A stretch of 64,000 bases of DNA from Paludibacteraceae bacterium. GTDB taxonomy: Bacteria; Bacteroidota; Bacteroidia; Bacteroidales; Paludibacteraceae. Made by a program: the position numbers and the translations under genes. How positions within the stretch are numbered: position 1 is the first letter of the stretch; every line of letters begins with the position of its first letter. Of this stretch, positions 900 to 15,672 are shown piece after piece. The stretch spans positions 27-64,026 of the forward strand of contig JAFUUZ010000026.1 in the NCBI GenBank assembly GCA_017471285.1. The letters are read 5' to 3'. The notes under the pieces are model-generated. The model worked only from the letters and a program-made list of their open reading frames with translations, was not told the DNA's origin and did no database searches.

Positions 900-1319
900 T
901 TAGGCGCGGGCAATGTGCATCCCGTCCGGGAAGCGTTCGCCCGTGTCAATATGGAAGTGAGCAGTAAGGCAGGGAACAAAGCCCCGGACCGTCTTTTTCG
1001 TCCGTTCGCCCCGGCCGTTCAACGGGTGAAAAACAACCTCTACGACTTCGGGGTAATCGTCATTTCCCACGAAGGAAGCGCGGGAAGCTATCATTATTCC
1101 CGTGACTTCGTAGCGCTTCGTCTCCCCGTCCCGGTTAGTTATCTTCACTCGCTCGTTCATTTGGTACGGTGAAATCTGCCGGGCCATTTGCTCGTCCAAG
1201 TGGTGCGATTCGTTTAATAGGTGGTTTCGCTCCATTCTAAGGGCAACTTCGGCCTCTCTGAGACCCTTGTCCCGTACCCTAATATCGGCTTTCTTGGTGT
1301 AATATTCGCTCGGTGTCAT
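900..1319 (-). CDS. hypothetical protein (139 aa)
   Basis: Track ORF. GGAGG plus CCGAACA lie directly upstream of the ATG on the - strand. No recognisable domain. Confidence 0.6.
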   Translation of the reverse strand: MTPSEYYTKKADIRVRDKGLREAEVALRMERNHLLNESHHLDEQMARQISPYQMNERVKITNRDGETKRYEVTGIMIASRASFVGNDDYPEVVEVVFHPLNGRGERTKKTVRGFVPCLTAHFHIDTGERFPDGMHIARA

Positions 1320-1337
1320 TGTTCGGTCCTCCTATCT

Positions 1338-1589
1338 TTACAGTTCCACGCAATAAATGTCAACATCTTCCCAGGAAAGGGAATAACCCGAAAAGTCGGC
1401 CAAATCCTTGTCAAGAGACGGGCGGGCAATTTCCCCGTCCTGCTCGGTCATTCGCTCCGCGCCGGCCTCAGCGTTCGGGACTGTGGTGTAACTTGCAATA
1501 TAGCGATAGCGCGGGCGGTCCAACTTCTTGTCGGTGATTACGAGATTCCGGCAAATGGTGTCGAAATAGGTCTTTATTGGCTTTTTCAT
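1338..1589 (-). CDS. hypothetical protein (83 aa)
   Basis: Track ORF with the ATATTATG start context shared by many genes of this block. Confidence 0.55.
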   Translation of the reverse strand: MKKPIKTYFDTICRNLVITDKKLDRPRYRYIASYTTVPNAEAGAERMTEQDGEIARPSLDKDLADFSGYSLSWEDVDIYCVEL

Positions 1590-1648
1590 AATATGTGCGC
1601 CCCCTTTGCTTATCGGTCGGGCATCCGTTCAAATGGTGGATAATTAGC

Positions 1649-1695
1649 ACCCCGGCGGCGTGTCGCTCGCCTTTGTCCGTCCTCCGGGCCGGGGT
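1649..1695 (-). repeat. nested GC-rich hairpin element, copy b
   Basis: Outer stem ACCCCGGC/GCCGGGGT (8 bp). Inner stem GGCG/CGCC with loop TGTCGCT. Lies in the gap between 1338..1589 and 1702..2349. Confidence 0.7.
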
Positions 1696-1701
1696 TGTGT
1701 C

Positions 1702-2349
1702 TTACTCTCCGAAACGCTCAATAGCGGGTCGTTCGATATTCTGCCACATAAATTGCCGCGCCCCCTCCTTATCTACGAAAAACGGGTTAATGTTCGCGGA
1801 CTGTTTGCGGGCGTAGTCCTCAATCTTTTTGAGCGCTGCGAGTGACTTGTCCCAGGTTTTGAGAGCGTCGCAGAACATCGCGGCCCGGCGCTCGTTCGAC
1901 TTTATTACCTTGTCGCAAGCGGCGGCGAAGGCTTCGCCGTTGATTCGCTCGTTCAACTTTTCGTCAACCTTGAAAATGTCGTTCGCGTAAGCGCTTGAAT
2001 AAGTGTAATATATACTGTTGTTCAATTCGTCGTCGAAGTAGCACCAATTGTAAGAATCGCGCCCCATTCGTTTGGTGTCAACTCTTACGGCCCGCTCGTT
2101 CAAATAGAACTTGCATTCATAGAAAAGGTTATTATAACCTTGTCGGCTTCCCATATCGAAGTGCGCGTACCCGCTCACTCGCTCGTTCACCGCGTCGGCA
2201 AATCGTTTGTTATACACTTTCCCGTCCCACTCCTTTGCAGTCGTTGCAAGGGTGCGGAACGCCTCGTTCATCTGCTCAAATCCTTTGAGAACTCCGGCCA
2301 AATACTGTTTGTATTCGGTCTTACTGAATCGCTTTTGTACAGTTTCCAT
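1702..2349 (-). CDS. hypothetical protein (215 aa)
   Basis: Track ORF, the longest frame in this stretch. Contains several copies of CGCTCGTTC on the + strand (recurrent NER tripeptides). No recognisable domain. Confidence 0.7.
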   Translation of the reverse strand: METVQKRFSKTEYKQYLAGVLKGFEQMNEAFRTLATTAKEWDGKVYNKRFADAVNERVSGYAHFDMGSRQGYNNLFYECKFYLNERAVRVDTKRMGRDSYNWCYFDDELNNSIYYTYSSAYANDIFKVDEKLNERINGEAFAAACDKVIKSNERRAAMFCDALKTWDKSLAALKKIEDYARKQSANINPFFVDKEGARQFMWQNIERPAIERFGE

Positions 2350-2408
2350 AATAGCGCCCCGTTTGGCTTCGCTCAGTAGCGGTTAGGGCTTCCGCGTCTG
2401 TTATTTTG

Positions 2409-2455
2409 AGGGCCGCCGGGGTGTCGCTCCCCGTCGCCGTTCGCCGTGCGGCCCT
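2409..2455 (-). repeat. nested GC-rich hairpin element, copy c
   Basis: Outer stem AGGGCCGC/GCGGCCCT (8 bp). Inner stem CGGGG/CCCCG with loop TGTCGCT. Lies in the gap between 1702..2349 and 2462..2704. Confidence 0.7.
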
Positions 2456-2461
2456 GGTCGT

Positions 2462-2704
2462 TCAATATGCAATAGCCGTATAATGTGCTATTGCCTTGCC
2501 GGGGTGCAATACCCCGTTAGCGTCGTAGGTGTCCGGCTCGCTTTCGTCCTCGTCCTTATAAACCCGGATTCCGTAAGCGGTCGTACTTTCAAGGCGGCGG
2601 GCCTCTTTCACGGCCTCGGCCTCCGTTGCAAACTCTTTCGAGCGGAAAAACTCGCGGCCCAATTTGTCGCGCTTATGATACATTACTTTGTAGGTCGTTT
2701 TCAT
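2462..2704 (-). CDS. hypothetical protein (80 aa)
   Basis: Track ORF, co-oriented small gene. Confidence 0.55.
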   Translation of the reverse strand: MKTTYKVMYHKRDKLGREFFRSKEFATEAEAVKEARRLESTTAYGIRVYKDEDESEPDTYDANGVLHPGKAIAHYTAIAY

Positions 2705-2715
2705 ATCCTCAGAGG

Positions 2716-2961
2716 TTAAGCCGTTCGGGGCATCCTTTTAATAATCTGTAAATCGTCGTAGCCAATCGTTCGCAGTTCTGCGAGAAGCGGCGCGTATTCG
2801 TTCGGGGTGGCGTTGCGGGTGTCCTGCGTTGCCCACTCGCGGCAACAGTCGGAATGCTGCCCGATATGGGCGTAACACATAATGTCGCCCCGGTTTCGTT
2901 CGGTCGGGAATACCGCGACAACTTCGCGGCTCTTGCGGTCAACTCTAAATAATACTTTCAT
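2716..2961 (-). CDS. hypothetical protein (81 aa)
   Basis: Track ORF. GGGAGGGCCGAACG lies directly upstream of the ATG on the - strand. Confidence 0.6.
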   Translation of the reverse strand: MKVLFRVDRKSREVVAVFPTERNRGDIMCYAHIGQHSDCCREWATQDTRNATPNEYAPLLAELRTIGYDDLQIIKRMPRTA

Positions 2962-2979
2962 CGTTCGGCCCTCCCTACA

Positions 2980-3231
2980 TTAAAAGTCAATCCGCCGGCC
3001 GGTAAGGTAGCAAAAGCCGTAACCGTTCGCCCGCTCCTGGTCTAATTCCTGCTGAATCTTGGCGGCGTGTTCTTTCCACGCTTGCGCCCGCTTGCGGGCA
3101 ATCGTTCGGCCCGTGGCGGTGGTAATCCGTCCGCGCGTCGCAATCAGTAACAGAGCGCCGAAAATAGCGCCGGCCGTGGGCCTGGTTTCGGGGGCTTGGA
3201 ATCGTTCGCCCTTAATCTGAAAAAGTACCAT
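2980..3231 (-). CDS. hypothetical protein (83 aa)
   Basis: Track ORF with a hydrophobic stretch AGAIFGALLLIA, so possibly membrane-associated. Confidence 0.5.
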   Translation of the reverse strand: MVLFQIKGERFQAPETRPTAGAIFGALLLIATRGRITTATGRTIARKRAQAWKEHAAKIQQELDQERANGYGFCYLTGRRIDF

Positions 3232-3254
3232 AATATAAGCCGCGTATTATATCC

Positions 3255-3401
3255 CGTTCGCGTTCGGGTCTTGGTCGGTCGTTCGGTCGTTCGGGTCGTT
3301 CGCCCGTGGTCGTTCGGCCTGGTTTGTTGGAATTGCACCCGCGCCCCGATTCGGTCGGGAGCGTCGCGCCGTTGCGCGGGTCGTTCGGGTGGGTCGTTCG
3401 G
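3255..3401. repeat. GTCGTTCGG tandem array in two blocks flanking hairpin copy g
   Basis: Units read in sequence: CCGTTCG and CGTTCGGG, then GTCGTTCGG at 3278, 3286, 3295 (ends GC) and 3309. After the hairpin, two more at 3380 and 3393. All sit in the 172-bp gap between 2980..3231 and 3404..3643. Confidence 0.8.
3337..3381 (-). repeat. nested GC-rich hairpin element, copy g (variant inner loop)
   Basis: Outer stem ACCCGCGC/GCGCGGGT (8 bp). Inner stem CCCGA/TCGGG has a 5-nt loop instead of the 7-nt CGCT-type loop. Confidence 0.55.
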
Positions 3402-3403
3402 TC

Positions 3404-3643
3404 TTAGTAGATATAAGACCCGCGCCCGGTGGCGGTCATCTTGTCAACGAAAGCGCCCCACGCGGCGCGGCGGTTTTCCTCCGTGGTCCGTATCTCAATA
3501 CGGGCGGCGGCTTCGTGGATATACCCGCCAATCGCGCCCACATAGGCAAGGCGGGCGAAGTCGTAACAACTTGCCGCAATCGCGGCGCAATCCCGCGCGG
3601 CTTGCTCGCTCGGAACAGTTACCGAAATAGTCCCTATATACAT
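3404..3643 (-). CDS. hypothetical protein (79 aa)
   Basis: Track ORF, co-oriented with its neighbours. Confidence 0.5.
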   Translation of the reverse strand: MYIGTISVTVPSEQAARDCAAIAASCYDFARLAYVGAIGGYIHEAAARIEIRTTEENRRAAWGAFVDKMTATGRGSYIY

Positions 3644-3702
3644 AGTATTTGCCCGCTATTTGCACCCGGTCGCGGTTTCCGTTCTTATGGTTGTAATCTT
3701 GC

Positions 3703-3742
3703 GCCCCGTCGCGGTAACGCTCCGCGCGTGTCTATTCGGGGC
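3703..3742 (-). repeat. nested GC-rich hairpin element, copy h
   Basis: Outer stem GCCCCG/CGGGGC. Inner stem CGCGG/CCGCG with loop TAACGCT. Lies in the gap between 3404..3643 and 3775..3993. Confidence 0.65.
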
Positions 3743-3774
3743 AATGTTGGCGGGCCGTTCGACCCGTCCGGGGT

Positions 3775-3993
3775 TTATAGGTATTTTTTCAGATGCTCAA
3801 AGAAAGCGCCCGCCGTGGCGAAGTAAGACCCCGCCGGGCGGCGGTAATGAGCGCGGGCGGCTTCCTTTCTCAGCGCGTCGCGTTCGTCGCTATTGAGGCA
3901 AAAAGCGTTTTTTTGAAAGTCCACGCCGGCGGCGGTTAGTCTGTTGATAATGTCGCGCTTTGCTTCGCGCCGTTCGTCCTTTGTTAGTCTCAT
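3775..3993 (-). CDS. hypothetical protein (72 aa)
   Basis: C-terminal part of track ORF 3775..4491, from ATG 3993..3991 (MRLTKDERREAKRDIINRL...). Its upstream CGCGCGAGAATATG duplicates the start region of 4118..4531. Confidence 0.5.
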   Translation of the reverse strand: MRLTKDERREAKRDIINRLTAAGVDFQKNAFCLNSDERDALRKEAARAHYRRPAGSYFATAGAFFEHLKKYL

Positions 3994-4117
3994 ATTCTCG
4001 CGCGGGTTTGTTGAGCCGGTCCACGCTTCCGGTGTTAAGTGGTGAATAATAGCGCCCCCGGCCGGAATCGAGCCGGCCCAAGTTCCAAAGGGGGCAACCC
4101 TCGCGGGGTGGTGTTTG

Positions 4118-4531
4118 TTAGTAGCTATCCGGGCGGAACTCCGGCGCGGTGCAAATGTAGCCGCCCCAATCCTGCACAATAGGCCCGGCGACCTCGTAAC
4201 GGTTTGCCGGCTCGAATTTGAGCGAATACCCGCGCGGGTCTCTATTCGTGCGGAACTCGTCGCCGGCCTTGTCTTTGTTTCCACAGAGGGAAACGAGACG
4301 ACGACGGGCGCGGGCCTCGGCTGCACTTTGTGCGCGTTCGGTTTCCTCAGTATAGCGCCGGCCGTAATCGTCGCGCCCGTTGCACTCCCATACGGCGAAG
4401 AAGTGCAAAAGCCGTTCATAATAATACGCGGACTTAATAAACGCGGCGAGATTCTCGGCGGGGATTTCGTAACGGTTTGCAAGGGCTGCAAAATGAGCGC
4501 GGCGGCGCGTGGTGGTGTTGGTCTGTTTCAT
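4118..4531 (-). CDS. hypothetical protein (137 aa)
   Basis: Track ORF with protein-like composition. First gene downstream of the leftward promoter box at 4812..4819. Confidence 0.6.
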   Translation of the reverse strand: MKQTNTTTRRRAHFAALANRYEIPAENLAAFIKSAYYYERLLHFFAVWECNGRDDYGRRYTEETERAQSAAEARARRRLVSLCGNKDKAGDEFRTNRDPRGYSLKFEPANRYEVAGPIVQDWGGYICTAPEFRPDSY

Positions 4532-4588
4532 ATTCTCGCGCGGTTGTTAACCCGTCCGCGCTTGCGGGCTTTAATTGTTGAACATTTG

Positions 4589-4636
4589 CACCCCGTCCCG
4601 GTGTCGCTCCGGGCGTGGCATCTTGTGCGCGGGGTG
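4589..4636 (-). repeat. nested GC-rich hairpin element, copy d
   Basis: Outer stem CACCCCG/CGGGGTG. Inner stem CCCGG/CCGGG with loop TGTCGCT. Lies in the leader between the promoter box at 4812..4819 and the ATG at 4531. Confidence 0.7.
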
Positions 4637-4811
4637 TTGGTTTCTTTTCGGGGGTTGTGGCGCGAATCCCGCGCCGGTCGTATCTTTTCCCAAACTCGCG
4701 GAGCAATTAAGCCCGACCCGCTCCGGCTTGCGCCGTTCCTTTTTGCAACTCTCGCAATATGTCGAAGCCGGCAAGAGTGGCGGCGGGAGGTGTTACAACC
4801 TCAACCCGATA

Positions 4812-4819
4812 CAAAGGTA
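4812..4819 (-). promoter_or_regulatory. Bacteroidota -7 box (TAccTTTG on the - strand) for the leftward small-ORF operon
   Basis: The + strand reads CAAAGGTA inside the AT-rich divergent region 4800..4926. Confidence 0.5.
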
Positions 4820-4926
4820 TATATAATATTTTATATATGCAATACTTTGACCCGAAAAAGTGCAAAAAAATGTAAAAAAAATTTCATCTTTGCACGCGAA
4901 CGGCTCGAAATAACTATATATTCAAT

Positions 4927-5454
4927 ATGTCGCAATTATCAGAACTTGAAAAAATCGCGCTTTCGTGGGCCGCAACCCTCGAAGCCGGCCCGGATTGGTG
5001 GAAATTGTACGAAGTTACGCACCCCGTTAGAAAATCCGAAATATTAACCGCCGGCGTTGTCTCGGCGTGGAAAAGGTCCGCACGAATAGCAAATTATTTC
5101 GAGGAACAAAAGCGCAACTTTTCCGCCCGTGTGGACGCAATCAGACAAGAGGAACGCGAACGGATAACGGGAGCAACGGAGCAGGAAACGAGCGAAACGG
5201 GCAATAATAACGAAATAGGCGCAAAGTTCGACTTTTCCGACCGGGGGCAACTGTTGCAATATCTTAACAGAGTAGCCAACACGAGCAAAGACGAAAAGCG
5301 GCGCTTTGAGGCGCTCAAACTGTTAGCGGATTTGCAGCAATTCAAGAAAGACGACCCGAACGGGGGCGAAATACAACGCTTTTACACTCCGTTAGCGTGT
5401 CAAGATTGCCCGCTATACCTCAAACAGAAAGAGAAAACACCGGCGGCGGTTTAG
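4927..5454 (+). CDS. hypothetical protein (175 aa), first gene of the rightward block
   Basis: Track ORF, charged and helical-looking (..KDEKRRFEALKLLADLQQFKK..). A small-terminase or DNA-binding role is only a guess. Confidence 0.6.
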   Translation: MSQLSELEKIALSWAATLEAGPDWWKLYEVTHPVRKSEILTAGVVSAWKRSARIANYFEEQKRNFSARVDAIRQEERERITGATEQETSETGNNNEIGAKFDFSDRGQLLQYLNRVANTSKDEKRRFEALKLLADLQQFKKDDPNGGEIQRFYTPLACQDCPLYLKQKEKTPAAV

Positions 5455-5628
5455 ATTACTTTAATAATGTAAACCACACCAGGCGACGAGCGCGGCGCGA
5501 AATCTTGCCGGGGGAGGGGGCAACCAGGGCCACCGAAGGGGCGGGAGGCGTTTTCGAGAAATTTTTTTGTGAATTTTTTTTCATCGGCTTTCGGGGGACT
5601 GAGGGCCGATGATTGTTTGTTGTTGTAA

Positions 5629-5839
5629 ATCTTTTGCGCATCTTTTTGGCAGATTTACAATTTTGGCCTTTGTAACTTACTGATTGACAATATCAGTTGT
5701 TTATCTCGTTAATCTCGTTACTCTTTTTGAAAAGCAAACCGTGAATAGAAAATATAGAAGAGGGATATAGAAAAAGATGAACGAGATGCACGACGCGCTC
5801 TGTTTCAATGCGTTACAGAGGAAAAGATGCGCAAAAGAT
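5629..5839. repeat. 18-bp perfect inverted repeat bracketing a 175-bp segment
   Basis: ATCTTTTGCGCATCTTTT at 5629..5646 is the exact reverse complement of 5822..5839. The right arm is a tandem AAAAGATGCGC x2. The interior carries tandem ATCTCGTTA x2 (5703..5720), an inverted AACGAGAT (5780..5787) and the palindrome ACTGAT-N7-ATCAGT (5679..5697). Confidence 0.85.
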
Positions 5840-5946
5840 GCGCAACTCAATTTACATACCCCCGTCAAACGGCCTTCTGAGCGGGGTGAGGTAATTTCGG
5901 AAATTCGATTTTAATTCATTTTTCGCCCGTTTTGAGCGGTACGACA

Positions 5947-5976
5947 TTGGAAGATGTTGGAAATTCTTGGAAATTT
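5947..5976 (+). repeat. TTGGAA(A/G)(T) direct repeats x3 at 10-bp spacing
   Basis: TTGGAAG at 5947, TTGGAAATT at 5957 and TTGGAAATTT at 5967, upstream of the 6025 promoter box. Confidence 0.7.
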
Positions 5977-6024
5977 CGGGTATTTTCGATGTAATTATCT
6001 GTAATTATTATTGCAATTTCGGGG

Positions 6025-6032
6025 TATTTTTG
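6025..6032 (+). promoter_or_regulatory. Bacteroidota -7 box TAttTTTG
   Basis: Exact TAnnTTTG, 13 nt upstream of ATG 6045. Confidence 0.5.
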
Positions 6033-6044
6033 CACCTTTGTGGT

Positions 6045-6377
6045 ATGAGAAAAGGAGAAAGGATATTAAAAAAGGCATTTCCCGAAAGGTCGGAGTTCTC
6101 TGAGGAAGAGATAGAGCTGGCGGAGAAGGTGATTGAGGCGTACCTTGCGCCGACACCGCGTTCCTCGGCTCTTCCGACGAAGTACACAGATGTAGGCGAT
6201 ATTCTTGAAATCGGCGGGCATCGGTATGAGTGTATCGTGGCGCGTCGGTGTTCTGTGCCGAGCGAGGCGTGTTCGGGGTGTGACTTCTCGCGCAAGTATC
6301 GCAATTGCTCAGATGTGCAATGTTCCCCTTTTGACAGAAGAGACGGAAAATTCGTGTGGTACAAGGAGGTGAAGTAA
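6045..6377 (+). CDS. Cys-rich hypothetical protein (110 aa)
   Basis: Track ORF 5967..6377 trimmed to ATG 6045 downstream of the promoter box. Contains CSVPSEACSGCDF...CSDVQCSPF. Confidence 0.55.
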   Translation: MRKGERILKKAFPERSEFSEEEIELAEKVIEAYLAPTPRSSALPTKYTDVGDILEIGGHRYECIVARRCSVPSEACSGCDFSRKYRNCSDVQCSPFDRRDGKFVWYKEVK

Positions 6378-7711
6378 TGGAGGACGAGATTCGTGGCTTG
6401 TTGGCGCTCTATGCCGACGATTTTGCCCGCGTGGGCGGGATAAGGGTACAATCTGAGCGGAAGGACGAATACTGCCGCATCATCCGGGGATGCCTTACGG
6501 TGTCGTCGCTATGCTACATCGGTAAGGTCCTGCACTATTTCGACGGGCGGGCCTATGTGCCGACCTCCCGCGCGGAGGTGGCCTCGGCGGTTATCAATTG
6601 CCTCTCGGATGATATGGGGATTGGCGCGTCTGACTTGTCGCGGCTGGGGGACATCCCCTATGTCGTGCTTGACAAAAAAGTGAAGTCTCCCGATGTCACG
6701 AAGGTGTCGTTTCTGAATGTCGTCTATGACATCGCGACGGGTAAGTGTCTGAAATTCTCACCCGACTATTTTACGGCGTATGCGTTGCCGTACAAGTTCG
6801 ACGCTAAGGGCGAATGCCCTGGGTGGCTGCGCTTTCTCGGCGAGGTCCTGCCCGATGCCGCGATGCAAGCGTGCTTGCAGGAGTTCTTTGGGATGTGCTT
6901 CGTGGACCGGCAGAAGTATTCCATAGAGAAGTTTGCGCTCTTCGTGGGTAAGGGCGCGAATGGGAAGAGTGTCGTCTGCGAGGTGATAAAGGCGGTCCTC
7001 GGCGGGGATTCCTGGGTGGATAATCTCTCGCCGGACCAACTGCAAGACCCGAAGCAAGTTGTGTCGCTGAATGGGAAGGTCCTCAACATTGCGCCCGATG
7101 TGCGGCGCGGCGCGGCCTTCGATAGCGCGTTGAAGGCGCTTTCCTCTTCGCAAGTGGTGAAGGGGTGGGCGATGTACAAGGGAAGCCAGGAGGTGAAGTG
7201 TCCCCCGCTTGCTTTCGCCCTCAACGAACTGCCCGTGTTCCGTGACACGACCTTTGGCTTCTTCCGCCGGATAATGCTTTTCAGCTTCAACTATACCGTC
7301 CCCGAAGAGAAGCAGGACAAGCAGCTTGCCTCGCGCCTCGTGGCGACGGAGGCGAGCGGCATCTTCAAGTGGATAATGGCCGGCCGAGCGCGGCTCATTG
7401 CCAACGGCGGGCAGTTCACGCCCTGCCCCGCTATGGACCAGGCCCGCACCGCTATGGAGGGCCGCGTCAAGACGGAGCAATCCCCCGTGCTGCAATACCT
7501 CGAAACGGCGGGTTGGAGCGTTGCGCCTCAGTATGCCGGACAGACCCCCGATAGGGTGACTGCGACGCAGATATACGAGGGTATGGAGGCGGCGGTCTCC
7601 AAATACAATATCACACACGAACTGCGGCGCTACGGCGTGATGTCCGAGCGCGGCAAGGAAGTAAGGTATCTACTGTATAAAAACAATCAATATGGCGAAC
7701 AAAACGATTAA
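6377..7711 (+). CDS. P4-family / D5-like primase-helicase NTPase (SF3-type)
   Basis: Walker A FVGKGANGKSV in the context typical of the phage/plasmid primase P4-family C-terminal domain. TAATG overlap with the upstream gene. Confidence 0.75.
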   Translation: MEDEIRGLLALYADDFARVGGIRVQSERKDEYCRIIRGCLTVSSLCYIGKVLHYFDGRAYVPTSRAEVASAVINCLSDDMGIGASDLSRLGDIPYVVLDKKVKSPDVTKVSFLNVVYDIATGKCLKFSPDYFTAYALPYKFDAKGECPGWLRFLGEVLPDAAMQACLQEFFGMCFVDRQKYSIEKFALFVGKGANGKSVVCEVIKAVLGGDSWVDNLSPDQLQDPKQVVSLNGKVLNIAPDVRRGAAFDSALKALSSSQVVKGWAMYKGSQEVKCPPLAFALNELPVFRDTTFGFFRRIMLFSFNYTVPEEKQDKQLASRLVATEASGIFKWIMAGRARLIANGGQFTPCPAMDQARTAMEGRVKTEQSPVLQYLETAGWSVAPQYAGQTPDRVTATQIYEGMEAAVSKYNITHELRRYGVMSERGKEVRYLLYKNNQYGEQND

Positions 7712-8132
7712 ACTCGGCCCGAACGACATCCGTTGCGGGAATCTGATTTACCACGACGAGCCTCAGTTCATCAAGCTCGTGGATGTGGCCGGCTATTTCT
7801 CCTACCGCATCAGCAAGTTCATCCCTCGCGGGCAAATCTTGATGATTGCGATGCAGCAAGCCAAGAAAGACCCGTCGCAGATGCGCTACTTGGAAAATCA
7901 CGCGGTCGTGACCTTTAACGCTATGACTTGCGTCCCCGACCAGCAGTTCTTTCTCGAACAGAACGCCTCTGCGGTCAACTGCATCAACCGCCACAAGGAC
8001 ATCTATGGCGTGAAGGAGGAAATCTTGGAGAAGGAGGACGCTCAAATCTTGCAGGAAGAGCGCGAGCTGGCCGAGGCTATGGAAGAAGCAAAGAAGGAGG
8101 AAGAGAATGAAGCCCCTAAGAGTGAAGATTAA
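7692..8132 (+). CDS. hypothetical protein (146 aa), acidic C-terminus
   Basis: Track ORF within the rightward operon. Confidence 0.6.
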   Translation: MANKTIKLGPNDIRCGNLIYHDEPQFIKLVDVAGYFSYRISKFIPRGQILMIAMQQAKKDPSQMRYLENHAVVTFNAMTCVPDQQFFLEQNASAVNCINRHKDIYGVKEEILEKEDAQILQEERELAEAMEEAKKEEENEAPKSED

Positions 8133-8574
8133 GCGCTTCGTCGCTGATGCGGAGATTCCGCGCTACGCCAATCCTGGGGATGCGGGTATGGACCTCGTGG
8201 CCGTGACCCGCTCCTTCGACGAATTTGGCAACATCGTGTACGGAACGGGCCTCGGCTTCGAGATTCCCGAAGGCTATGTTGGCCTGGTGTTCCCGCGCAG
8301 CAGCAACTGCAAGAAGGACCTCTTCTTGACGAATAGCGTTGGTGTGATTGATTCCGGCTACCGTGGCGAGGTGACGCTGAAATTCAAGCCGACGGACCTT
8401 CGCTGCGACAAGTGGGGTCGCATCAACCGGCAGAACAAGTCCTTCCCCTACGAGGTTGGCGAGTGTGTCGGCCAACTGATTATTATGCCCTATCCGACGA
8501 TTGAGTTCAAGGAGGTGGCCGAACTGTCTGATTCTGCCCGTGGCGCTCACGGCTACGGCTCAACGGGTAAGTAA
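8107..8574 (+). CDS. dut: dUTP pyrophosphatase (trimeric dUTPase)
   Basis: Motifs PGDAGMDL, FPRSS and GVIDSGYRGEV, with a C-terminal GYGSTG. Confidence 0.9.
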   Translation: MKPLRVKIKRFVADAEIPRYANPGDAGMDLVAVTRSFDEFGNIVYGTGLGFEIPEGYVGLVFPRSSNCKKDLFLTNSVGVIDSGYRGEVTLKFKPTDLRCDKWGRINRQNKSFPYEVGECVGQLIIMPYPTIEFKEVAELSDSARGAHGYGSTGK

Positions 8575-8957
8575 TGGCTGAGAAGGTGCATCAGATACAC
8601 GAGTTTGAGTGCGGCATCTACCCGCGCAACTTGTGGATTACCGTGGGCGCTCCGATAGATGTCCTGCGGGACTTCTTCGGGAAGGACTTGCCCGAAATGG
8701 ATAAGGATGCCGCCGCCGATGTGACATTGGTCCACGCAGACAAGCCAAAGCCTCGCGGTGGAGTTCTGATTCGCTTCGAGAATCGGAAGGAACTCAACAC
8801 CGAGAACATCTGCCACGAGGCCGGCCACGCTGCGTTGGAGATATTTCACTACTGTGGCGCGGGCATCAACTATGACAACCAAGAGCCTTTCTGCTACCTT
8901 ATGGGGTGGATTGCTCGTATGTGTGACAAGGTAAGACGAGGAAAATATGAAGATTGA
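8574..8957 (+). CDS. small HExxH protein (127 aa), putative metallopeptidase-like
   Basis: ICHEAGHAALE contains HExxH. TAATG overlap with dut. Confidence 0.55.
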   Translation: MAEKVHQIHEFECGIYPRNLWITVGAPIDVLRDFFGKDLPEMDKDAAADVTLVHADKPKPRGGVLIRFENRKELNTENICHEAGHAALEIFHYCGAGINYDNQEPFCYLMGWIARMCDKVRRGKYED

Positions 8958-9489
8958 ATTGCTCGAAATGGCCGGCCTCGGCTCGGCGTTGAAGGCCCTG
9001 CGCCTCTCCTACGGAAAGGAAATGCGTAGTGGCGTTGTCTCAGATGTCTATTCCCGTGAGCCTGGCGACTTCAAGTATGAGACGAGCGTCGCGATGAATC
9101 CCGACGACCTCGCGCTGATGCAGAAGCTGATTTCCGCCGGCGACGAACACGCGAAGGTCCTGCGCGGCGTGCTTGTGTATGTTGCGATTACCGCACCCCG
9201 CTATTGGTGGCAGGAAATGGTAACTTACGACAAGATTGGCTCACAATGTCTGATGTCGGAATCCACTATGCACATCCAGGGCAAGGGCCTTTCGACGGAG
9301 GACCTTGTGCGGATGAAGGAGAATCTGACCGAGGGTACTGAGCAGAAGCGCATCTACTACTTCTCTTATCAGACGCTCCGCCGCATCTACCGTCAGCGTC
9401 GCAACCACCGCCTCCCCGTGTGGCATACCTTCTGTGAGTGGGTCGAATCCCTGCCGTTTGCTAATGAACTCATAACCAACGGTCTCTGA
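8947..9489 (+). CDS. ThyX-like fold protein lacking the RHR motif
   Basis: Colinear by eye with ThyX. MKIELLEMAGLGSALKALRLSYG corresponds to the ThyX N-terminus. AGDEHAKVLRGVLVYVAITAPRYWWQEMVTY corresponds to HGHETPFEH..FTF.IKAPIFVARQWFRHR. EMVTY replaces RHR. Confidence 0.45.
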   Translation: MKIELLEMAGLGSALKALRLSYGKEMRSGVVSDVYSREPGDFKYETSVAMNPDDLALMQKLISAGDEHAKVLRGVLVYVAITAPRYWWQEMVTYDKIGSQCLMSESTMHIQGKGLSTEDLVRMKENLTEGTEQKRIYYFSYQTLRRIYRQRRNHRLPVWHTFCEWVESLPFANELITNGL

Positions 9490-9490
9490 T

Positions 9491-9943
9491 ATGCCACCGA
9501 AAGGATTATTCAACCTCAACGGCTCTACGAAGCTATACGCCACCCGCAAGGACACGGGCGAAGAGTACGAGGTGAGCGCCGAGGTGGTCCAAGACAACAT
9601 TTCGGTCCTCAAAAAAGCGTTTGCGCCCGAAGGGTACGCTCCGCCGAAGGACCTCAGTTGCGGGCCGATTACCTTCGATGTGCGCCTTTCGGAAGATGAC
9701 ATCAAGAAAATCTATCGCGAGGTCGGTGCGCTCTCGAATATCCGCAGCTACTACTACAAGTGTCGCGAGCAGTACGCGAATAAGCGTAGGCCGCTCGAAC
9801 TTGTCTGCAACCGCAAGTGCTTCGACATTATCAATCACGAGGCGCATTGGTTATATGGGTGCAACTTGAAGAGGTGGGCCAAAAGGTTTCACCTCAACAT
9901 AAAATTTTCTAAACCACTTAAATACAATCGCGTCAAGCTATGA
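9491..9943 (+). CDS. hypothetical protein (150 aa)
   Basis: Track ORF within the operon. Confidence 0.6.
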   Translation: MPPKGLFNLNGSTKLYATRKDTGEEYEVSAEVVQDNISVLKKAFAPEGYAPPKDLSCGPITFDVRLSEDDIKKIYREVGALSNIRSYYYKCREQYANKRRPLELVCNRKCFDIINHEAHWLYGCNLKRWAKRFHLNIKFSKPLKYNRVKL

Positions 9944-10203
9944 ACATCTTACGAAAACTTCTGAATTGGGCCGGAACTGACGGTCTCCTGCACATTGGAT
10001 GCAGTTTCTTCATCTGCCTGGTGGTTGGCGCATTTCTGCCGATATGGGCCGCAGCCGGCATAACCCTCTTGATTGGTGTCGCGAAGGAAATCTTCGACCT
10101 CCTGCATCCCGAAAGCCACTCCGCAGAATGGAAGGACCTTATCTGCGACGCTATCGGCATCGCGGTAGGCTGCGGCATCATCCTTCTCTATACGCTCCTA
10201 TGA
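9940..10203 (+). CDS. small membrane protein (87 aa, about 3 TM segments)
   Basis: Hydrophobic segments FFICLVVGAFLPIWAAAGITLLIGV and AIGIAVGCGIILLY. ATGA overlap with the upstream gene. Confidence 0.6.
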   Translation: MNILRKLLNWAGTDGLLHIGCSFFICLVVGAFLPIWAAAGITLLIGVAKEIFDLLHPESHSAEWKDLICDAIGIAVGCGIILLYTLL

Positions 10204-10349
10204 TTGTCAAGTTCTTTCAGAAAGCGGTCTATTTCGAGATTCTTCCCTCCCTTTCGGTTTGGGCCGGCCGGAAGGAGGGGAAGTTTCGCGTTGCCCTTTG
10301 GTTTTCTTGGCTCAACTGCATCATCCTTTCCTTGCAGATAGATGTTTAG
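10200..10349 (+). CDS. possible small protein (49 aa)
   Basis: ATG 10200 overlaps the stop of 9940..10203 (ATGA). Read by hand from the frame of track ORF 9999..10349. Confidence 0.3.
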   Translation: MIVKFFQKAVYFEILPSLSVWAGRKEGKFRVALWFSWLNCIILSLQIDV

Positions 10350-10533
10350 GATTGTACGGCTCTTGCTGCATCAGCAGAAGGTTATCCACGAGTACGAACG
10401 CCTCGTGGAGCATATTCTTGTAGAGTTGGCTACGCGCCAATGCGTCCCTTACAAGCCCTTCAATGACGACCTCGTACCCGACGCGGCGGGTCTTTGCGAA
10501 GAGACGGTCAATGTTCTGCGGGACGCAAAGAAA

Positions 10534-10558
10534 GGGCCGGGAGATTACCTCTCGGCCC
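10534..10558 (-). terminator. hairpin terminator at the convergence point of the rightward and leftward operons
   Basis: 10-bp stem (GGGCCGGGAG / CTCTCGGCCC, one G-T pair) with loop ATTAC. On the - strand it is followed by CTTTCTTTG. Confidence 0.5.
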
Positions 10559-10586
10559 TGGTTAGAACAACAACAACCGAAAAAAG

Positions 10587-11363
10587 TTAAGTGATGTCCT
10601 TCTCGAACACGGGAACTGCGTAGCAAACGCAGTTGGGGTGAACGGGCAGGACCACATCATCAATGGGGTACGGGCTTCCCGCTACCACATCGTCGCAACT
10701 CGGACAGTCGTAGTCCGACCCCCTCAGCACACGATAGCCGATAGCGCCCGCCCTGCGGTAGCCATAGACCACGCCACGATTGTAGGCGCGGTTTACCATA
10801 TCCGAGGATGTCAGCACGAAGCCACGGAGCGGCGAGATAGGCGTACCCTTGTCCCAATAGTAGCCGCCCTCGCGGATAATCTTCGAGGCGTAGCTGCGTC
10901 CGTCCTCGAACGCCTTTTTCCAAAGCGGCGATATATACGGGTTGGCGAGAAACACAAGGAGATTCGTGGCGATGCTGCCCTTCGACAGACCGTTGGCGAA
11001 TCCGATTGTGGCCCAACCTTCGAGGATGAATTTGAGGTGCGAGGCGTACTTGTCAAGGGTGTTCTGCGCCGTGATGTCGAAAAGGACGAAAGCAACGATT
11101 TCGTCAGCGTCCTCTTCATCATTAGCCTCTTCTATCGCGCGACGCATACGCACCTCCGCATCTGCGAGAATCTCGTCAGAGAGCGCCATAAGGATGCGGT
11201 TGGTCTCCGCGTCAAGGTCTGCGTCCGCCTCGAAAGTGAACTGCTTGCCGAGACTTCTGTACGCCTCAGCGAGAGCGAGAATCTTTCCGACGGTGGACGC
11301 GACCTTCAAGCGGTAGTCCGTTGCTATCGCGGCGATGTCTTGTAATACCTTATCCGAGTACAT
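10587..11363 (-). CDS. head morphogenesis / minor capsid protein (Mu F / SPP1 gp7-like)
   Basis: C-terminal PVHPNCVCYAVPV matches the HPNCRC signature of the Mu F family. Sits directly downstream of the portal gene. Confidence 0.7.
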   Translation of the reverse strand: MYSDKVLQDIAAIATDYRLKVASTVGKILALAEAYRSLGKQFTFEADADLDAETNRILMALSDEILADAEVRMRRAIEEANDEEDADEIVAFVLFDITAQNTLDKYASHLKFILEGWATIGFANGLSKGSIATNLLVFLANPYISPLWKKAFEDGRSYASKIIREGGYYWDKGTPISPLRGFVLTSSDMVNRAYNRGVVYGYRRAGAIGYRVLRGSDYDCPSCDDVVAGSPYPIDDVVLPVHPNCVCYAVPVFEKDIT

Positions 11364-12907
11364 TACTGAGCGTTGCGGGCGTTAGCAATCACATTGGTGT
11401 CCTTGTTGCTTGCGGGCTGAGGACCAACAAGAGCGTCGTGCACCTCCTGGTTGATGCGCTCATTCTCACCAACAACACCGTAGCCATACTCGTAGGCCAT
11501 TTCGGAAGCGGACCTCTGAGAGAGAGCGCCGATGCCTTTGAGCTGGACGATAGAGTTGATAACCTCCGTCTCGCTTTGGAAGATGTACGGGAAGAGTTCA
11601 GCCTTCACGCCGAAGGTGTTGAAGTCCGAGGACTGCCCGACCTCAATGCCGTAGCCATACTTGAACAGTTCCACAATACTGTCAAGGAAAGGCTGGAAGT
11701 GCATCGAATCGTCAAGCGCCTTCAAGTAGGCATCCGCGAAGAGCATCTTCACGGTCAGCGAGGACATATCCGCGCCGGACTTGATTTCGGGGGTCTCCAC
11801 GGCAAAGGAGGACCGCATAATATTCTTCTCCAATGTGGAAAGTTGGAGCGTGAAGGAGTTTGAGGAATCCGCCGGCTCTAAGAAGCCCACGCGAGCGTTG
11901 GGGTCGGGCGAGTTGATAGAGAGCGGCGTACCGTCAATGCTGCTCTTCATATCCATTTCCTCGCCGAACGAGTAGAGGATGCGAAGGGCGTAGGCGGCGT
12001 TGTTTTCGCAGAGCTGGGAGATTGCCATTTCGTAACTGTCAATCAGCGACTGAGAGTTGGCCCAAAACGGCTCGCCGTAGCGGTCGTAGGCAATCGGAAT
12101 GGTCTTGAAGTTGTGGCGGACGAGCGGCTGGTCTATCACCCAACCATTGAGGCCAAGAAGGTCCTTGACCTTATTCTTTGCGCCCTTGATGCCCTTCTTG
12201 TCCTTCTTGTAGCGGGCGTAGTATTTCTCGTCCCACACATCAAGATACTCGGAGATTTCCTTGTCGTCTCCGTCGCGCAGGGAGTAGCGCCGGCCGAAGA
12301 GGGCGAGCTTGCCGGTTTCGGGGTCGTAGTGCGGATAGAGGATGTCGCCCTTCTCGAACGAGAACACGCGGTAGCCGAGTTTCTTGTTCTTGACGAAGAA
12401 GCACACGGCGCAGTCGCCGGTCTTTCCGTCGGCAGAGAGAGCCTCGTAGATAGCGTTCTCAATGTTGCACTTCTCCCAACCTTCGCGGAACTTGCAGAGC
12501 ATTTCCTGGTCCTTCTCAGTAGGCTTGGCCGAGGTGATGCGGAGGTTGGTGTTGTTGCCGACGAGGGCCGTGAGGCGCTTGACGAAGATGCGCTCCTGGA
12601 AGCCAATGGCAACGCGCGACTTGATTTTGGCGTAGAACTTCCCGTCGTCGTCCTTGCGGAGCGGGTTGGGATAGTATTTGAGAGAGTTGATTTTGTGCGA
12701 GTTGACATCGAACTCGCGCAGGAAGTCTGACTGCGTAAGCAACTCGAAGCGGAGCGGGTCGCGGCCTTCCTCGTACTGAGCGGCGGCATCCCCGGTCTGA
12801 AAGCCCGCGCAACTGACGGTCAGACACTCCGAAGGCAAGGCCCGCTTGAAAGCAGCCTTCACAAGAATGTCCTTCGGCGAGAGTGTTTGAATGTTAATGG
12901 AGTTCAT
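11363..12907 (-). CDS. portal protein
   Basis: 514 aa, positioned between TerL and the MuF-like gene. Called mainly from synteny and size. Confidence 0.7.
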   Translation of the reverse strand: MNSINIQTLSPKDILVKAAFKRALPSECLTVSCAGFQTGDAAAQYEEGRDPLRFELLTQSDFLREFDVNSHKINSLKYYPNPLRKDDDGKFYAKIKSRVAIGFQERIFVKRLTALVGNNTNLRITSAKPTEKDQEMLCKFREGWEKCNIENAIYEALSADGKTGDCAVCFFVKNKKLGYRVFSFEKGDILYPHYDPETGKLALFGRRYSLRDGDDKEISEYLDVWDEKYYARYKKDKKGIKGAKNKVKDLLGLNGWVIDQPLVRHNFKTIPIAYDRYGEPFWANSQSLIDSYEMAISQLCENNAAYALRILYSFGEEMDMKSSIDGTPLSINSPDPNARVGFLEPADSSNSFTLQLSTLEKNIMRSSFAVETPEIKSGADMSSLTVKMLFADAYLKALDDSMHFQPFLDSIVELFKYGYGIEVGQSSDFNTFGVKAELFPYIFQSETEVINSIVQLKGIGALSQRSASEMAYEYGYGVVGENERINQEVHDALVGPQPASNKDTNVIANARNAQ

Positions 12908-14575: not shown

Positions 14576-14721
14576 AGCCGCAAAGGTGGAGAAATAATCG
14601 CAATAAAGTGTAATAAATCTTTCATTTTATAGCGAAACAATATCTATTATCGCCGTGCGGACAATGGAAATAAATGGAATAATGTGAAACAATAATTTTG
14701 CAATTGTCAAGAAAGATTCCT

Positions 14722-14729
14722 TACCTTTG
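14722..14729 (+). promoter_or_regulatory. Bacteroidota -7 box TAccTTTG
   Basis: Exact TAnnTTTG in the AT-rich divergent region 14576..14731, 9 nt before ATG 14738. Confidence 0.45.
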
Positions 14730-14737
14730 CCGTGGAT

Positions 14738-14914
14738 ATGGCCGAGAAAGACACACAGATGCGTTTTACGAAGATAGCTTGCCCTCAATGCGGTAAGCCT
14801 TTTCCCGTGCGTATAATCCAGCTCAACGGTAGGCTTCGCTACTCCATTCGCTGCAAGTCCTGCGGCAAGATTAGCGAAATCGAAATTGAGAACAACATAT
14901 CGGAGGCCAAGTAG
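14738..14914 (+). CDS. zinc-ribbon protein (58 aa)
   Basis: CPQCG...CKSCG. Track ORF 14732 (GTG) trimmed to ATG 14738. Confidence 0.5.
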   Translation: MAEKDTQMRFTKIACPQCGKPFPVRIIQLNGRLRYSIRCKSCGKISEIEIENNISEAK

Positions 14915-15015
14915 CGCCCAACAGAGACAACTAAGCGTCCTTAGAGACCACAACAGTCCGGCGGAGAAGCACCATAGGGGTGCTTCCTTGTCGGGCTATA
15001 ATTTTATAAAACATT

Positions 15016-15672
15016 ATGAAACAAAAAATTGTAGATGCACTCAAAACTGCTTACGCGACGCTGGGGTTGAGTGACGAGGCTTTTGACGGGGTTGCCTCTC
15101 TACTCGAAAAAACTGTCACCGAGGAATCCCAAATCGCAACTGCTATTGCCGGGGACGATGTTAAGGGACTTCTCAAAACAATCCAGGGCCAAGTTGATTC
15201 GTGGAAAAACAAGTTCCACGATAAGGACAAGGAACTGAAAGCGTACCAAACCGCGCATCCCGACACCAAACCGTCTGACCCTCCCGCAGACCCGAACGAC
15301 CCGGTGCAGAAGAAACTCGCCGAGTTGGAGGCCAAGCAGAAGGAGTACGACGCGAAAATCAAGGCGACGGAAGCGAAGGCGCGTAATGCCGAGGTGGTGT
15401 CCGAACTTCACCGTCTGTTGAAGGAGAAAGGCGCTGATAACGACTTTATCCGCAATATGACGCTGAGGGGCATCGAAATCGGCGAGAACGATACCGCAGA
15501 AAGCCTTGTGGAGAAGTACAAGACTGAGTACGACAAGAACTTCAAGGAGGCTTACGGTGACGGTCCTGCTCCCAAGACGGGCGTGCAGACCCCTACTGAG
15601 TATCAAGCCGGCGCTTACGCAAGCGAGGTCGAACGCTTACGGGCCGAAGGGAAACTCCCCAAAGCCGAGTAG
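15016..15672 (+). CDS. scaffolding protein (putative)
   Basis: 218 aa, charged coiled-coil composition (KKLAELEAKQKEYDAKIKATEAKARNAE). Lies upstream of the capsid genes. Confidence 0.6.
   Translation: MKQKIVDALKTAYATLGLSDEAFDGVASLLEKTVTEESQIATAIAGDDVKGLLKTIQGQVDSWKNKFHDKDKELKAYQTAHPDTKPSDPPADPNDPVQKKLAELEAKQKEYDAKIKATEAKARNAEVVSELHRLLKEKGADNDFIRNMTLRGIEIGENDTAESLVEKYKTEYDKNFKEAYGDGPAPKTGVQTPTEYQAGAYASEVERLRAEGKLPKAE

Follow-up and report, generated by a model that had tools for sequence, protein, structure and literature searches.

At the origins of the Staphylococcus aureus pathogenicity islands (SaPI), and likewise at archaeal ORB and SV40/papillomavirus origins, assembly takes place head to head, AT-rich DNA is melted and helicase is loaded in both directions. 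The Rep protein of SaPI/PICI elements is a self-loading helicase, and their origins, just downstream of rep, consist of two sets of short iterons of lineage-specific sequence that flank an AT-rich region in non-coding DNA beside the SF3-type helicase gene. In the ori/crr system of phage P4, short repeats in both orientations also serve as origin sites; the α protein, whose helicase belongs to the D5_N + SF3 superfamily, also contains a primase, binds DNA through a C-terminal domain and depends on a second site, crr. Clusters of short repeats around a centre of ~60-90 bp also make up the packaging sites of the headful phages P1 (pac) and SPP1 (pacL-pacC-pacR), which lie in or beside the small-terminase gene. 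Repeat clusters flank an AT-rich centre at lambda attP, and the Bacteroides invertons flipped by Tsr/Mpi-type recombinases are promoter segments of ~175 bp between inverted repeats of 15-30 bp.

The locus compared here with these systems lies in a complete circular ~64-kb temperate phage, which corresponds to the window, that is, the whole 64-kb stretch of DNA that was analysed. It occupies a gap of 590 nt, correctly measured in the initial annotation, between the gene for a 175-aa protein (geneX, 4927-5454, plus strand) and the ATG at 6045 of the next gene. Within this gap, ATCTTTTGCGCATCTTTT at 5629-5646 matches, as had been reported, the reverse complement of 5822-5839 exactly, and the two arms enclose 175 nt. 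The repeat stretches to 25 nt at 88% (5622-5646 / 5822-5846). With arms at most 500 nt apart, this 18-nt repeat is the longest perfect inverted repeat of the window, the runner-up being 14 nt; among 100 simulated 64-kb sequences (first-order Markov), a single one reached 17 nt and none 18 nt. The segment between the arms is 36.6% GC, against 53.5% genome-wide. The right arm is made of two copies of AAAAGATGCGC (5822-5832 and 5833-5843), again as previously described, and all three copies of this word in the whole window fall inside the repeat arms. The 18-bp perfect repeat amounts to a pair of outer iterons on either side and is the outermost layer of a nested dyad.

Judged from its sequence, the stretch 5622-5846 is a mirror-symmetric nested dyad of putative protein-binding repeats around an easily melted core. 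From outside to inside it comprises outer iterons, GTAAC boxes, inner TAACGAGAT iterons and a core of 58 bp. Each of the three short-site classes (AAAGAT-KYRC iterons, GTAAC/TGAT dyad boxes and TAACGAGAT iterons) occurs in inverted sets flanking the core: three outer iterons on the left and two on the right with 11-bp spacing, boxes on both sides, and two inner iterons on the left and one on the right. The left outer iterons (5622-5659, a stretch that includes the left arm) are AAAGATTTAC (minus strand, 5625-5634) and AAAGATGCGC (minus strand, 5636-5645), 11 bp apart, followed by AGATTTACA (plus strand, 5651-5659). The left box (5668-5697, plus strand) combines GTAAC (5672-5676) with the ACTGATTGACAATATCAGT dyad; the ACTGAT-N7-ATCAGT pointed out earlier is present at 5679-5697. 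Two minus-strand copies of TAACGAGAT form the left inner iterons (5703-5720), where the tandem ATCTCGTTA x2 of the initial annotation was verified. The core (5721-5778) has 29.5% GC against 53.5% genome-wide, is 69% purine on the top strand and contains two copies of ATATAGAA; it is a candidate unwinding or cleavage centre. On its right, the plus-strand inner iterons (5775-5791) comprise AGATGAAC, AACGAGAT (5780-5787), the inverted copy that had been recognised before, and AGATGCAC. The right box (5798-5820, minus strand) is the CTCTGT...ACAGAG hairpin, which exists as claimed although its start had been placed one base off, at 5799; its GTTAC (5812-5816) mirrors the GTAAC of the left box, and the two box regions are paired by an inverted repeat of 71% (5660-5683 / 5805-5828). 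The right outer iterons (5822-5846, plus strand) are the two AAAAGATGCGC copies, spaced by 11 bp, and include the right arm 5822-5839. Elsewhere in the window, comparable iteron clusters are limited to CGAACGAC word clusters in a small-ORF block near 1.9 and 3.1-3.3 kb.

A series of conserved signals precedes the array. An AT-rich hairpin, GGTTTAGATTA / TAATGTAAACC (5448-5475, plus strand), overlaps the geneX stop codon, and a hairpin of this kind likewise follows the geneX stop in L002, L003, L004, L008, L017-L021, L025, L028, L040-L043 and BI-TP1, a cultured LoVEphage-type phage. It is followed by a G-tract block (5505-5582, plus strand; GGGGGAGGGGG..GGG..GGGG..GGG, then T7 and T8 runs). The order of G-tracts then T-runs is kept in nearly all relatives, and contigs break at or near the block (L051 at 5468, L055 at 5519, L007 in its own copy). 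A terminator-like hairpin (5581-5623, plus strand) consists of TCATCGGC ... GCCGATGA (5581-5612) and then T-rich sequence. The diverged relative L002 has another stem, ACACCAG...CTGGTGT with T7, at the same place, and the hairpin is therefore preserved via compensatory change. The array is thus placed between a terminator-like hairpin and the next promoter box, a perfect Bacteroidota -7 box TATTTTTG (6025-6032, plus strand) that lies 13 nt 5' of the ATG at 6045 and outside the repeat-bounded segment; TAnnTTTG boxes directly 5' of an ATG are also found in L002, L003 and L020.

The first gene after the array encodes a small Cys-rich protein of 110 aa (6045-6377, plus strand), in which A75, C76, G78, C79, C88, C93, R98, D100 and W105 are invariant in a 17-member alignment and for which no Pfam or PDB match was found; nothing usable came from profile and fold database searches (Pfam, PDB, PHROG) with a 146-aa protein. 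The stop of the small Cys-rich gene overlaps the start of an SF3 helicase gene (6356-7711, plus strand; start at 6377 in the gene calls of identical contigs, giving 444 aa). The label of primase-helicase given to this protein of 444-451 aa holds for its second half, since D5_N and DUF5906/SF3 domains are present, and fails for the first, there being no primase domain. Genes for a DnaB-like primase/helicase, a clamp, an SSB, Erf and an exonuclease, the principal replication and recombination functions of the phage, lie 40 kb off, at 44-53 kb. A block of headful type contains the large terminase gene TerL (12932-14575, minus strand) together with an SPP1-type portal gene and a MuF-like gene. Two tyrosine recombinases are encoded, and integrases and a tRNA-Met gene are located at 58.7-62.5 kb.

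The constant neighbour of the array across relatives is geneX. Its predicted structure (two AlphaFold models, pLDDT 73 and 79) starts at the N terminus with an HTH-like bundle of three helices, has a helix of ~33 residues and a helical hairpin, and carries the motif RFYTPLxCxxCxLY at the C terminus. Single sequences gave no Pfam or PHROG match, and a PDB fold search gave no significant one. For this family 110 homologues were found, and clustering at 50% identity gives no fewer than 511 clusters, the representative search listing the best 150 of 511 matches.

Nine near-identical genomes have invariant iterons, and variation is 2.6 times denser in the downstream spacer. L002 is 71-80% identical to the window; the array is conserved at ~80% and the helicase gene at 69%, and the sequence just downstream of the array is barely alignable. 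Its left arm contains iteron variants A A where the window has A B, and its arms are 79-86% complementary. The dyad layout, with lineage-specific iterons, is found in L003, L018-L021, L017, L004, L025, L034-L037, L040, L041, L043 and BI-TP1, and in all dyad relatives an AT-rich centre separates the inverted iteron sets. Inverted GTAAGT/GTAACT-N-TTGATTATCA boxes occur in L003, L008, L017-L021, L025, L034-L037, L040, L041 and L043. The commonest iteron class in relatives is TAACGA-type (L003, L018-L020, L025, L034-L037, L043), and the inner iterons of L040 are AAAAGATGCAAAAGATGCAA. The resemblance of the conserved box to a DnaA box or an IHF site was a by-eye judgement, inconsistent across relatives, and was dropped; metagenome matches to the inner iteron word (L015, L016) proved to be chance matches in AT-rich coding DNA. 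No match to the DNA 4800-8200 or to the geneX protein was found among 50,697 phage records, where, of the queries used, only TerL reached LoVEphage-type phages (34% identity), and none of 60 genomes of genus or order relatives of the genome bin matched.

In every relative examined the array directly follows geneX, and the usual order downstream is small Cys-rich gene, SF3 helicase and dUTPase. A cro-like HTH gene and then geneX lie ahead of the array in several relatives, the array heading a rightward operon. After insertions the array stays with geneX: the helicase operon is displaced by 5.6 kb in L025/L061 and set apart by an extra gene in L004. The SF3 helicase is absent from its usual position in L028/L029 and L042; the small Cys-rich gene is retained even there (L028, L042), and these helicase-less relatives show, rather than a dyad, iterons in direct tandem next to an AT-rich stretch. 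Every relative with an SF3 helicase carries the dyad form, a contrast that concerns two helicase-less lineages and the usual position of the gene. In L027, a homologue of the C-terminal half of geneX is translationally coupled to a DUF3987 primase-helicase. Iteron class tracks clade, as do all three neighbouring proteins, so that covariation does not single out one of them as the binder. The module is made up of geneX, the hairpin at its stop codon, the G-tract/T-run block and the array of dyad iterons, followed by the gene for the small Cys-rich protein and, in most cases, that for the SF3 helicase.

The best reading of the dyad array 5622-5846 is that it is the replication origin of the phage, to which we assign a probability of about 0.48. 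Inverted, 11-bp-phased iteron sets flank an AT-rich core, an organisation that resembles an origin. Moreover, the upstream edge of a helicase operon is the usual site of phage replication modules. The invariance of the iterons, the recurrence of the layout throughout the family, the dyad present in every relative with the SF3 helicase, the gene coupling in L027, the long imperfect hairpin into which the single strand folds and the want of a comparable cluster elsewhere in the window, CGAACGAC words apart, also speak for an origin. The two half-sites would be bound by phage proteins encoded on either side; candidates are, upstream, the 175-aa geneX product with its HTH and, downstream, the small Cys-rich protein together with the SF3 helicase. 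Two complexes would thereby be placed face to face, and melting of the core and bidirectional helicase loading would follow. An origin recognised by the adjacent helicase was one of the two possibilities raised in the initial annotation; as an origin the array is still best explained, but its constant neighbour is the upstream geneX and not the adjacent helicase. Counting against an origin, the array is separable from the helicase operon but never from geneX, the main replication genes are far away and GC skew gives no clear signal at the array.

Comparison with described origins gives both likenesses and differences. With those of SaPI/PICI the array shares two short-iteron sets flanking an AT-rich region, a non-coding position beside an SF3-type helicase gene and lineage-specific iterons. 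It differs in lying upstream of the helicase operon, always after a separate HTH gene, and in nesting at least three repeat classes; furthermore, the phage helicase has no adjoining primase partner and is dispensable in some relatives. With P4 it shares a helicase of the same superfamily and short repeats in both orientations, whereas the phage helicase lacks the primase domain of α and no second copy of the repeats, as a counterpart of crr, was found in the window.

The main rival, less likely but well ahead of the other alternatives, is that the array is a pac site and geneX the missing small terminase of the phage. The geneX protein would bind both repeat clusters, wrap the DNA and expose the centre so that the large terminase could make the initial headful cut, for which P1 pac and SPP1 pacL-pacC-pacR are precedents. 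This reading stays alive because the geneX protein weakly resembles small terminases, a hint that favours a packaging site over an origin. When the AlphaFold models of geneX were compared with BFVD using Foldseek, the top four and top five matches, respectively, were annotated as 'terminase small subunit' and were full-length (E 3e-3 to 5e-2), and the best match of the family consensus, and of the consensus only, was phrog_641 TerS (E 1e-3). Nevertheless, the likeness is weak (best E 3e-3, TM about 0.3, PDB without significant match), and the geneX homologue in the LoVEphage record is marked 'No HHsearch hits'. TerL has no adjoining small terminase, no other TerS candidate was found in the genome, and the SPP1-type portal and MuF-like gene suggest a headful mechanism as in P1 and SPP1. 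Short-repeat clusters around a centre of comparable size, beside the gene of a possible small terminase, are a further likeness to these phages; the site, however, is downstream of geneX and 7 kb from TerL, and its centre is strongly AT-rich, of the unwinding type. A core of 58 bp and 29.5% GC between inverted iterons is a hallmark of unwinding elements, and pac sites are not known to require one. The array is never parted from geneX, but geneX itself comes first in an operon of early type, after a cro-like gene, an unusual place for a gene of late packaging, and its HTH region is just 39% identical within clades that share iterons. The contig of the window is circular, as expected for a permuted genome, and published LoVEphage genomes also assemble as circles (PMC8525569). 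The start of contig L013 coincides with the first base of the left arm (5629), yet contig ends near the array are spread over 5468, 5519 and 5629 with no single position. Two further ends were rejected as physical ends: the L007 contig is only a 64%-complete fragment, and the contig of L002, though 100% complete, is interrupted at an arbitrary point that falls between the portal and TerL genes.

It is improbable, and clearly more so than a packaging site, that the array is a transcriptional control region, an operator or insulator that sets the expression of the small gene and helicase operon or blocks read-through from geneX. Its position between the terminator-like hairpin and the promoter box would suit such a role, as would the HTH_3 genes nearby in several relatives and the HTH-like N-terminus of geneX. 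However, the array ends ~180 nt upstream of the promoter box, with no overlap, and at least three repeat classes with a ~58-bp AT-rich core exceed the needs of an operator. Furthermore, the array of L025/L061 is fully kept though followed by 5.6 kb of opposite-strand genes.

The other possibility raised in the initial annotation, a promoter switch (5647-5821) flipped by a recombinase between the 18-bp arms, now seems very improbable. Perfect 18-bp arms around 175 bp are of the right size for Bacteroides invertons, the setting is Bacteroidales and the phage has two tyrosine recombinases. Nevertheless, flipped copies, which were to be expected among related genomes, are absent from all 13 independent near-identical assemblies (12 and the window) and from the diverged L002. 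Within clades, forward alignment of the cores scores far higher than reversed alignment (63 versus 14, 34 versus 14 and 30 versus 13); between clades, core sequences are too diverged for a meaningful score of this kind. L013 begins precisely at the outer margin of the left arm, the point at which coexisting orientations would make an assembly graph fork, but the same contig passes the right arm unbroken, as it could not in a true mixture of orientations. Built of tandem iterons, the arms do not persist as a perfect pair in relatives, those of L002 being composed of different iteron variants rather than forming a matched crossover pair. A scan of both strands of 5647-5821 agreed with the annotation in finding no perfect TAnnTTTG, and the downstream operon has its own box outside the segment. 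Finally, no recombinase gene adjoins the array: the nearest are ~7 kb away across the circle junction, beside the tRNA gene, as expected of integrases.

A structured non-coding RNA is less credible still. A single strand of the array folds into a long imperfect hairpin, better than shuffled sequences (z = -4.3), but no Rfam match was found even at E = 1, the differences that separate L002 from the window exchange entire iteron variants without preserving pairing, and the stretch lies downstream of a terminator and lacks a promoter box. An attP with arm-type integrase sites around a core, the least probable reading, which ~200-bp repeat clusters flanking an AT-rich centre recall through their resemblance to the lambda site, is refuted by the module being intact and internal in prophages on bacterial contigs of 116 and 127 kb (L040, L041), where an attP would be split; in addition, apart from chance matches of at most 15 nt, the region has no counterpart elsewhere in the genome bin, and the integrases and tRNA-Met gene lie elsewhere, as described above.

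The module is common to a large family of gut Bacteroidales temperate phages, including those of LoVEphage type, which have been found in 8-28% of human gut viromes (PMC8525569, PMC12629997, PMC12694917). In the literature surveyed, no origin, pac site or small terminase was found described for LoVEphage-type phages. The site identified here could provide an origin or a packaging signal for shuttle vectors or phage engineering, and a cultured system exists in BI-TP1 on Bacteroides intestinalis. More generally, a perfect inverted repeat in a gap of a Bacteroidales phage is likelier to belong to a paired iteron array than to an inverton. Several more speculative variants, together a long shot, can be envisaged: geneX may have a true small-terminase fold, with the dyad serving both replication and packaging; it may be an initiator of terminase fold recruited for the SF3 helicase; or an R-loop or G-quadruplex formed at the G-tracts and T-runs may prime synthesis at the origin. 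If this were true, replication and packaging would be coupled at a single site in highly prevalent temperate phages of the human gut, LoVEphage and its relatives.

The 18-bp perfect inverted repeat described in the initial annotation was recovered by direct inspection of the sequence and by a repeat search: ATCTTTTGCGCATCTTTT (5629-5646) recurs as its exact reverse complement at 5822-5839 after an interval of 175 nt, and the right arm consists of two copies of AAAAGATGCGC, a word located by word search only in the arms within the window. No other perfect inverted repeat in the window with arms at most 500 nt apart is as long, and none of 100 simulated 64-kb Markov sequences contained one of 18 nt or more. 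The internal elements initially listed are also present: ATCTCGTTA twice at 5703-5720, the inverted AACGAGAT at 5780-5787, ACTGAT-N7-ATCAGT at 5679-5697 and a CTCTGT...ACAGAG hairpin at 5798-5820 (initially given as 5799-5820). The 18-bp repeat is the outermost layer of a nested dyad (5622-5846). Outer iterons (short repeated putative protein-binding sites) of the form AAAGAT-KYRC, spaced by 11 bp, occur on the left at 5625 and 5636 (both -) and 5651 (+) and on the right at 5823 and 5834 (both +). GTAAC-containing boxes follow inwards (5668-5697, mirrored at 5798-5820), then inner iterons TAACGAGAT, two on the left (-, 5703-5720) and one on the right (+, 5780-5787), which surround a purine-rich core of 58 bp (5721-5778) with 29.5% GC against 53.5% genome-wide. 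The array folds well as a single strand (z = -4.3), as expected of any nested dyad, and the region matched no Rfam family.

Upstream lies geneX (4927-5454, +), which encodes 175 residues and has a hairpin across its stop codon (5448-5475). A G-tract block (5505-5550), two T-runs (5552-5582) and a terminator-like hairpin (5581-5612) follow; L002, the nearest diverged relative, has a different complementary stem in the same place as this last hairpin. Downstream of the dyad, a perfect Bacteroidota -7 box, TATTTTTG (6025-6032), lies 13 nt before the ATG (6045) of a small Cys-rich gene, its end being 12 nt from that codon. The operon of this gene and the SF3 helicase would accordingly have hardly any 5' leader or none; the box is similarly close to the ATG in L002, L003 and L020.

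The same module was present in every relative reached by the searches: geneX, the stop-codon hairpin, G-tracts and T-runs, inverted iteron sets around an AT-rich centre, the small Cys-rich gene, usually the SF3 helicase followed by a gene of about 146 codons, and then a convergent block of MuF-like, portal and TerL genes. It is also carried by the cultured LoVEphage-type phage BI-TP1, in which gp47, a geneX homologue (hhalign 96%, E 2e-9), is followed by a 760-nt gap with inverted sets of TGTATAGT iterons around an AT-rich centre, then by gp46 and the gp45 primase/helicase. Iteron sequence varies by lineage: TTAACGAG-type in the related loci L003, L018-L020, L025 and L034-L037, CGTACCATT-type in L004, L017 and L021, and AAAGATGCA as the inner set of L040. 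The inner iterons of the window belong to the widespread class, and AAAGAT-type outer iterons recur in L002, L040 and L043.

The G-tract block (GGGGGAGGGGG...) with its T-runs directly follows the stop-codon hairpin in nearly every relative (for example L003 2740-2835, L018 2030-2145, L041 9600-9690 and, on the minus strand, BI-TP1 at about 2760-2860 of L058), and many also have another such G-tract block on the far side of the array. The block might adopt a G-quadruplex or R-loop structure, or serve as an unusual terminator. Contigs break in this hairpin and G-tract zone at 5468 (L051) and 5519 (L055), and L007 breaks in its own copy.

Sequence comparison indicates which features of the array are maintained. 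The L002 array aligns at about 80% in the same orientation (its helicase is 78% identical), and the spacer downstream is barely alignable. The arms combine two variants of the iteron, A (AAAGATTTACA) and B (AAAAGATGCGC), ordered A B (left) and B B (right) in the window and A A and A B in L002, whose arms are therefore only 79-86% complementary. It is the iteron that is maintained and not the pairing of the arms, which speaks for protein sites rather than crossover sites or RNA pairing. Nine near-identical genomes from different samples differ at seven columns of 5620-5846, none of them in an iteron, and at 16 columns of 5847-6044.

The window is an essentially complete temperate tailed phage genome. 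The 64,165-nt contig, of which it covers bases 27-64026, has overlapping ends (a 141-nt terminal direct repeat), so that the assembly closes into a full circle of about 64,024 bp. With 53% GC it is slightly richer than the remainder of the 55%-complete bin (50%). The promoter boxes located are compatible with a gut Bacteroidales phage. Annotated genes include portal (11363-12907, -), TerL (12932-14575, -), major head protein (16406-17593), a DGR-type reverse transcriptase (35853-37073), a sliding clamp, SSB, exonuclease and Erf (44-53 kb), two tyrosine integrases (58719-59885 and 61595-62515, both -) and tRNA-Met (60776-60849). Two helicase superfamilies coexist: the main replication block contains a DnaB-like primase/helicase (46426-48549, -), and the SF3 D5-like protein (6356-7711), which is dispensable in some relatives, is encoded near the array. 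The SF3 protein had been called a primase-helicase; the domain search supports the helicase (D5_N, DUF5906) and returned no primase domain. The small Cys-rich gene (6045-6377) is translationally coupled to the SF3 helicase gene and persists in relatives that have lost that helicase; its product matched no known family, and invariant residues are A75, C76, G78, C79, C88, C93, R98, D100 and W105.

Of the two functions initially envisaged for 5629-5839, a replication origin is the favoured reading, tentatively and with a probability of about 0.48. It is suggested by the marked AT-richness of the core that lies between inverted iterons in helical phase, by a transcriptionally quiet position with a terminator on one side and a promoter on the other, and by the place of the array at the head of an operon usually encoding an SF3 helicase. 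SaPI/PICI and P4 replicons are known for such a design, in which an SF3 helicase gene adjoins an AT-rich core flanked by sets of iterons. Moreover, the iterons become direct where the helicase is missing: L028/L029 and L042 lack it at the usual place, retain geneX, the gap and the small gene, and have direct tandem repeats (TCTCTAT x8; GTTTGCCCTTT x4) beside an AT-rich stretch. In L004 a 486-aa ORF, and in L025/L061 5.6 kb of opposite-strand genes, separate the array from the small gene and helicase operon, and all repeat motifs remain beside geneX. Array position thus goes with geneX and dyad form with the presence of the SF3 helicase, the latter in a small sample of two helicase-less lineages, with absence judged at the usual place.

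A packaging initiation site (pac) is a less likely reading, though the strongest of the others. The layout resembles P1 or SPP1 pac, the phage has headful-type packaging genes, its small terminase is otherwise missing, and the constant neighbour geneX has a terminase-like predicted fold. TerL opens its own operon (12932-15016 region), and the search for a small terminase found none adjoining it and no candidate besides geneX; the 440-nt gap upstream of TerL contains a 58-aa zinc-ribbon mini-ORF (14739-14915, +; CPQCG...CKSCG), also present in L042. The unannotated geneX family (110 homologues) shares an invariant C-terminal Y..C..C..Y motif. Its real sequences gave no Pfam, PHROG or PDB match, and a homologue in a LoVEphage record is labelled 'No HHsearch hits'; the family consensus best matches phrog_641 (small terminase, E 1e-3). 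Two AlphaFold models (pLDDT 73 and 79) begin with three helices resembling an HTH and continue with a long helix and a helical hairpin; among predicted viral structures, the first four Foldseek hits of one and the first five of the other are labelled 'terminase small subunit' (E 3e-3 to 5e-2, TM about 0.3). Two observations speak against a terminase role: geneX stands at the head of an early-type operon, where in several relatives it follows a cro-like HTH gene, and in L027 the gene of a DUF3987 primase-helicase shows translational coupling to a homologue of the C-terminal half of geneX. The odds that geneX encodes a small terminase are put at about even. The L027 locus (906-12561) is a compact integrated element with an integrase, an HTH_17 protein and the DUF3987 protein, followed by a tape-measure-like gene with TerL and portal absent in between; it may be a phage satellite. 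Elsewhere in the phage genome, dense repeats occur only as clusters of CGAACGAC-type words in the small-ORF block (1889-2181 and 3102-3310). If the array serves one of the origin and pac functions, the other might reside there.

That the sites form a regulatory array is improbable, and the inverton, attP and RNA readings are more so even when taken together. The attP reading was rejected, the module being intact inside integrated prophages on contigs of 116 and 127 kb; matches to the region elsewhere in the genome bin do not exceed chance. The proposed flipping of 5647-5821 between the 18-bp arms is very improbable. Twelve independent assemblies at 98-100% identity (L013, L014, L044-L051, L054, L056) all carry the segment in the window orientation relative to their flanks, the left flank being missing in L013 and partial in L051 (which start at 5629 and 5468). 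Within clades, cores fit far better forwards than reversed (63 vs 14, 34 vs 14, 30 vs 13), the recombinases are distant, and a motif scan found no -7 box on either strand inside the segment, in agreement with the promoter absence noted initially. The 3.3-kb metagenome contig L013 (Ga0310786_10101594) starts precisely where the left arm does and continues unbroken through the right arm, which an orientation mixture would not allow. In this single case the contig start may reflect chance, a physical end of the DNA or a junction of variants that occur together.

No origin or packaging site of LoVEphage-type phages is described in the published surveys PMC8525569, PMC12629997 and PMC12694917. What is new here is this specific module, its occurrence in LoVEphage-type phages and its tie to the geneX family, which comprises at least 511 clusters at 50% identity and may be the missing small terminase of these phages.
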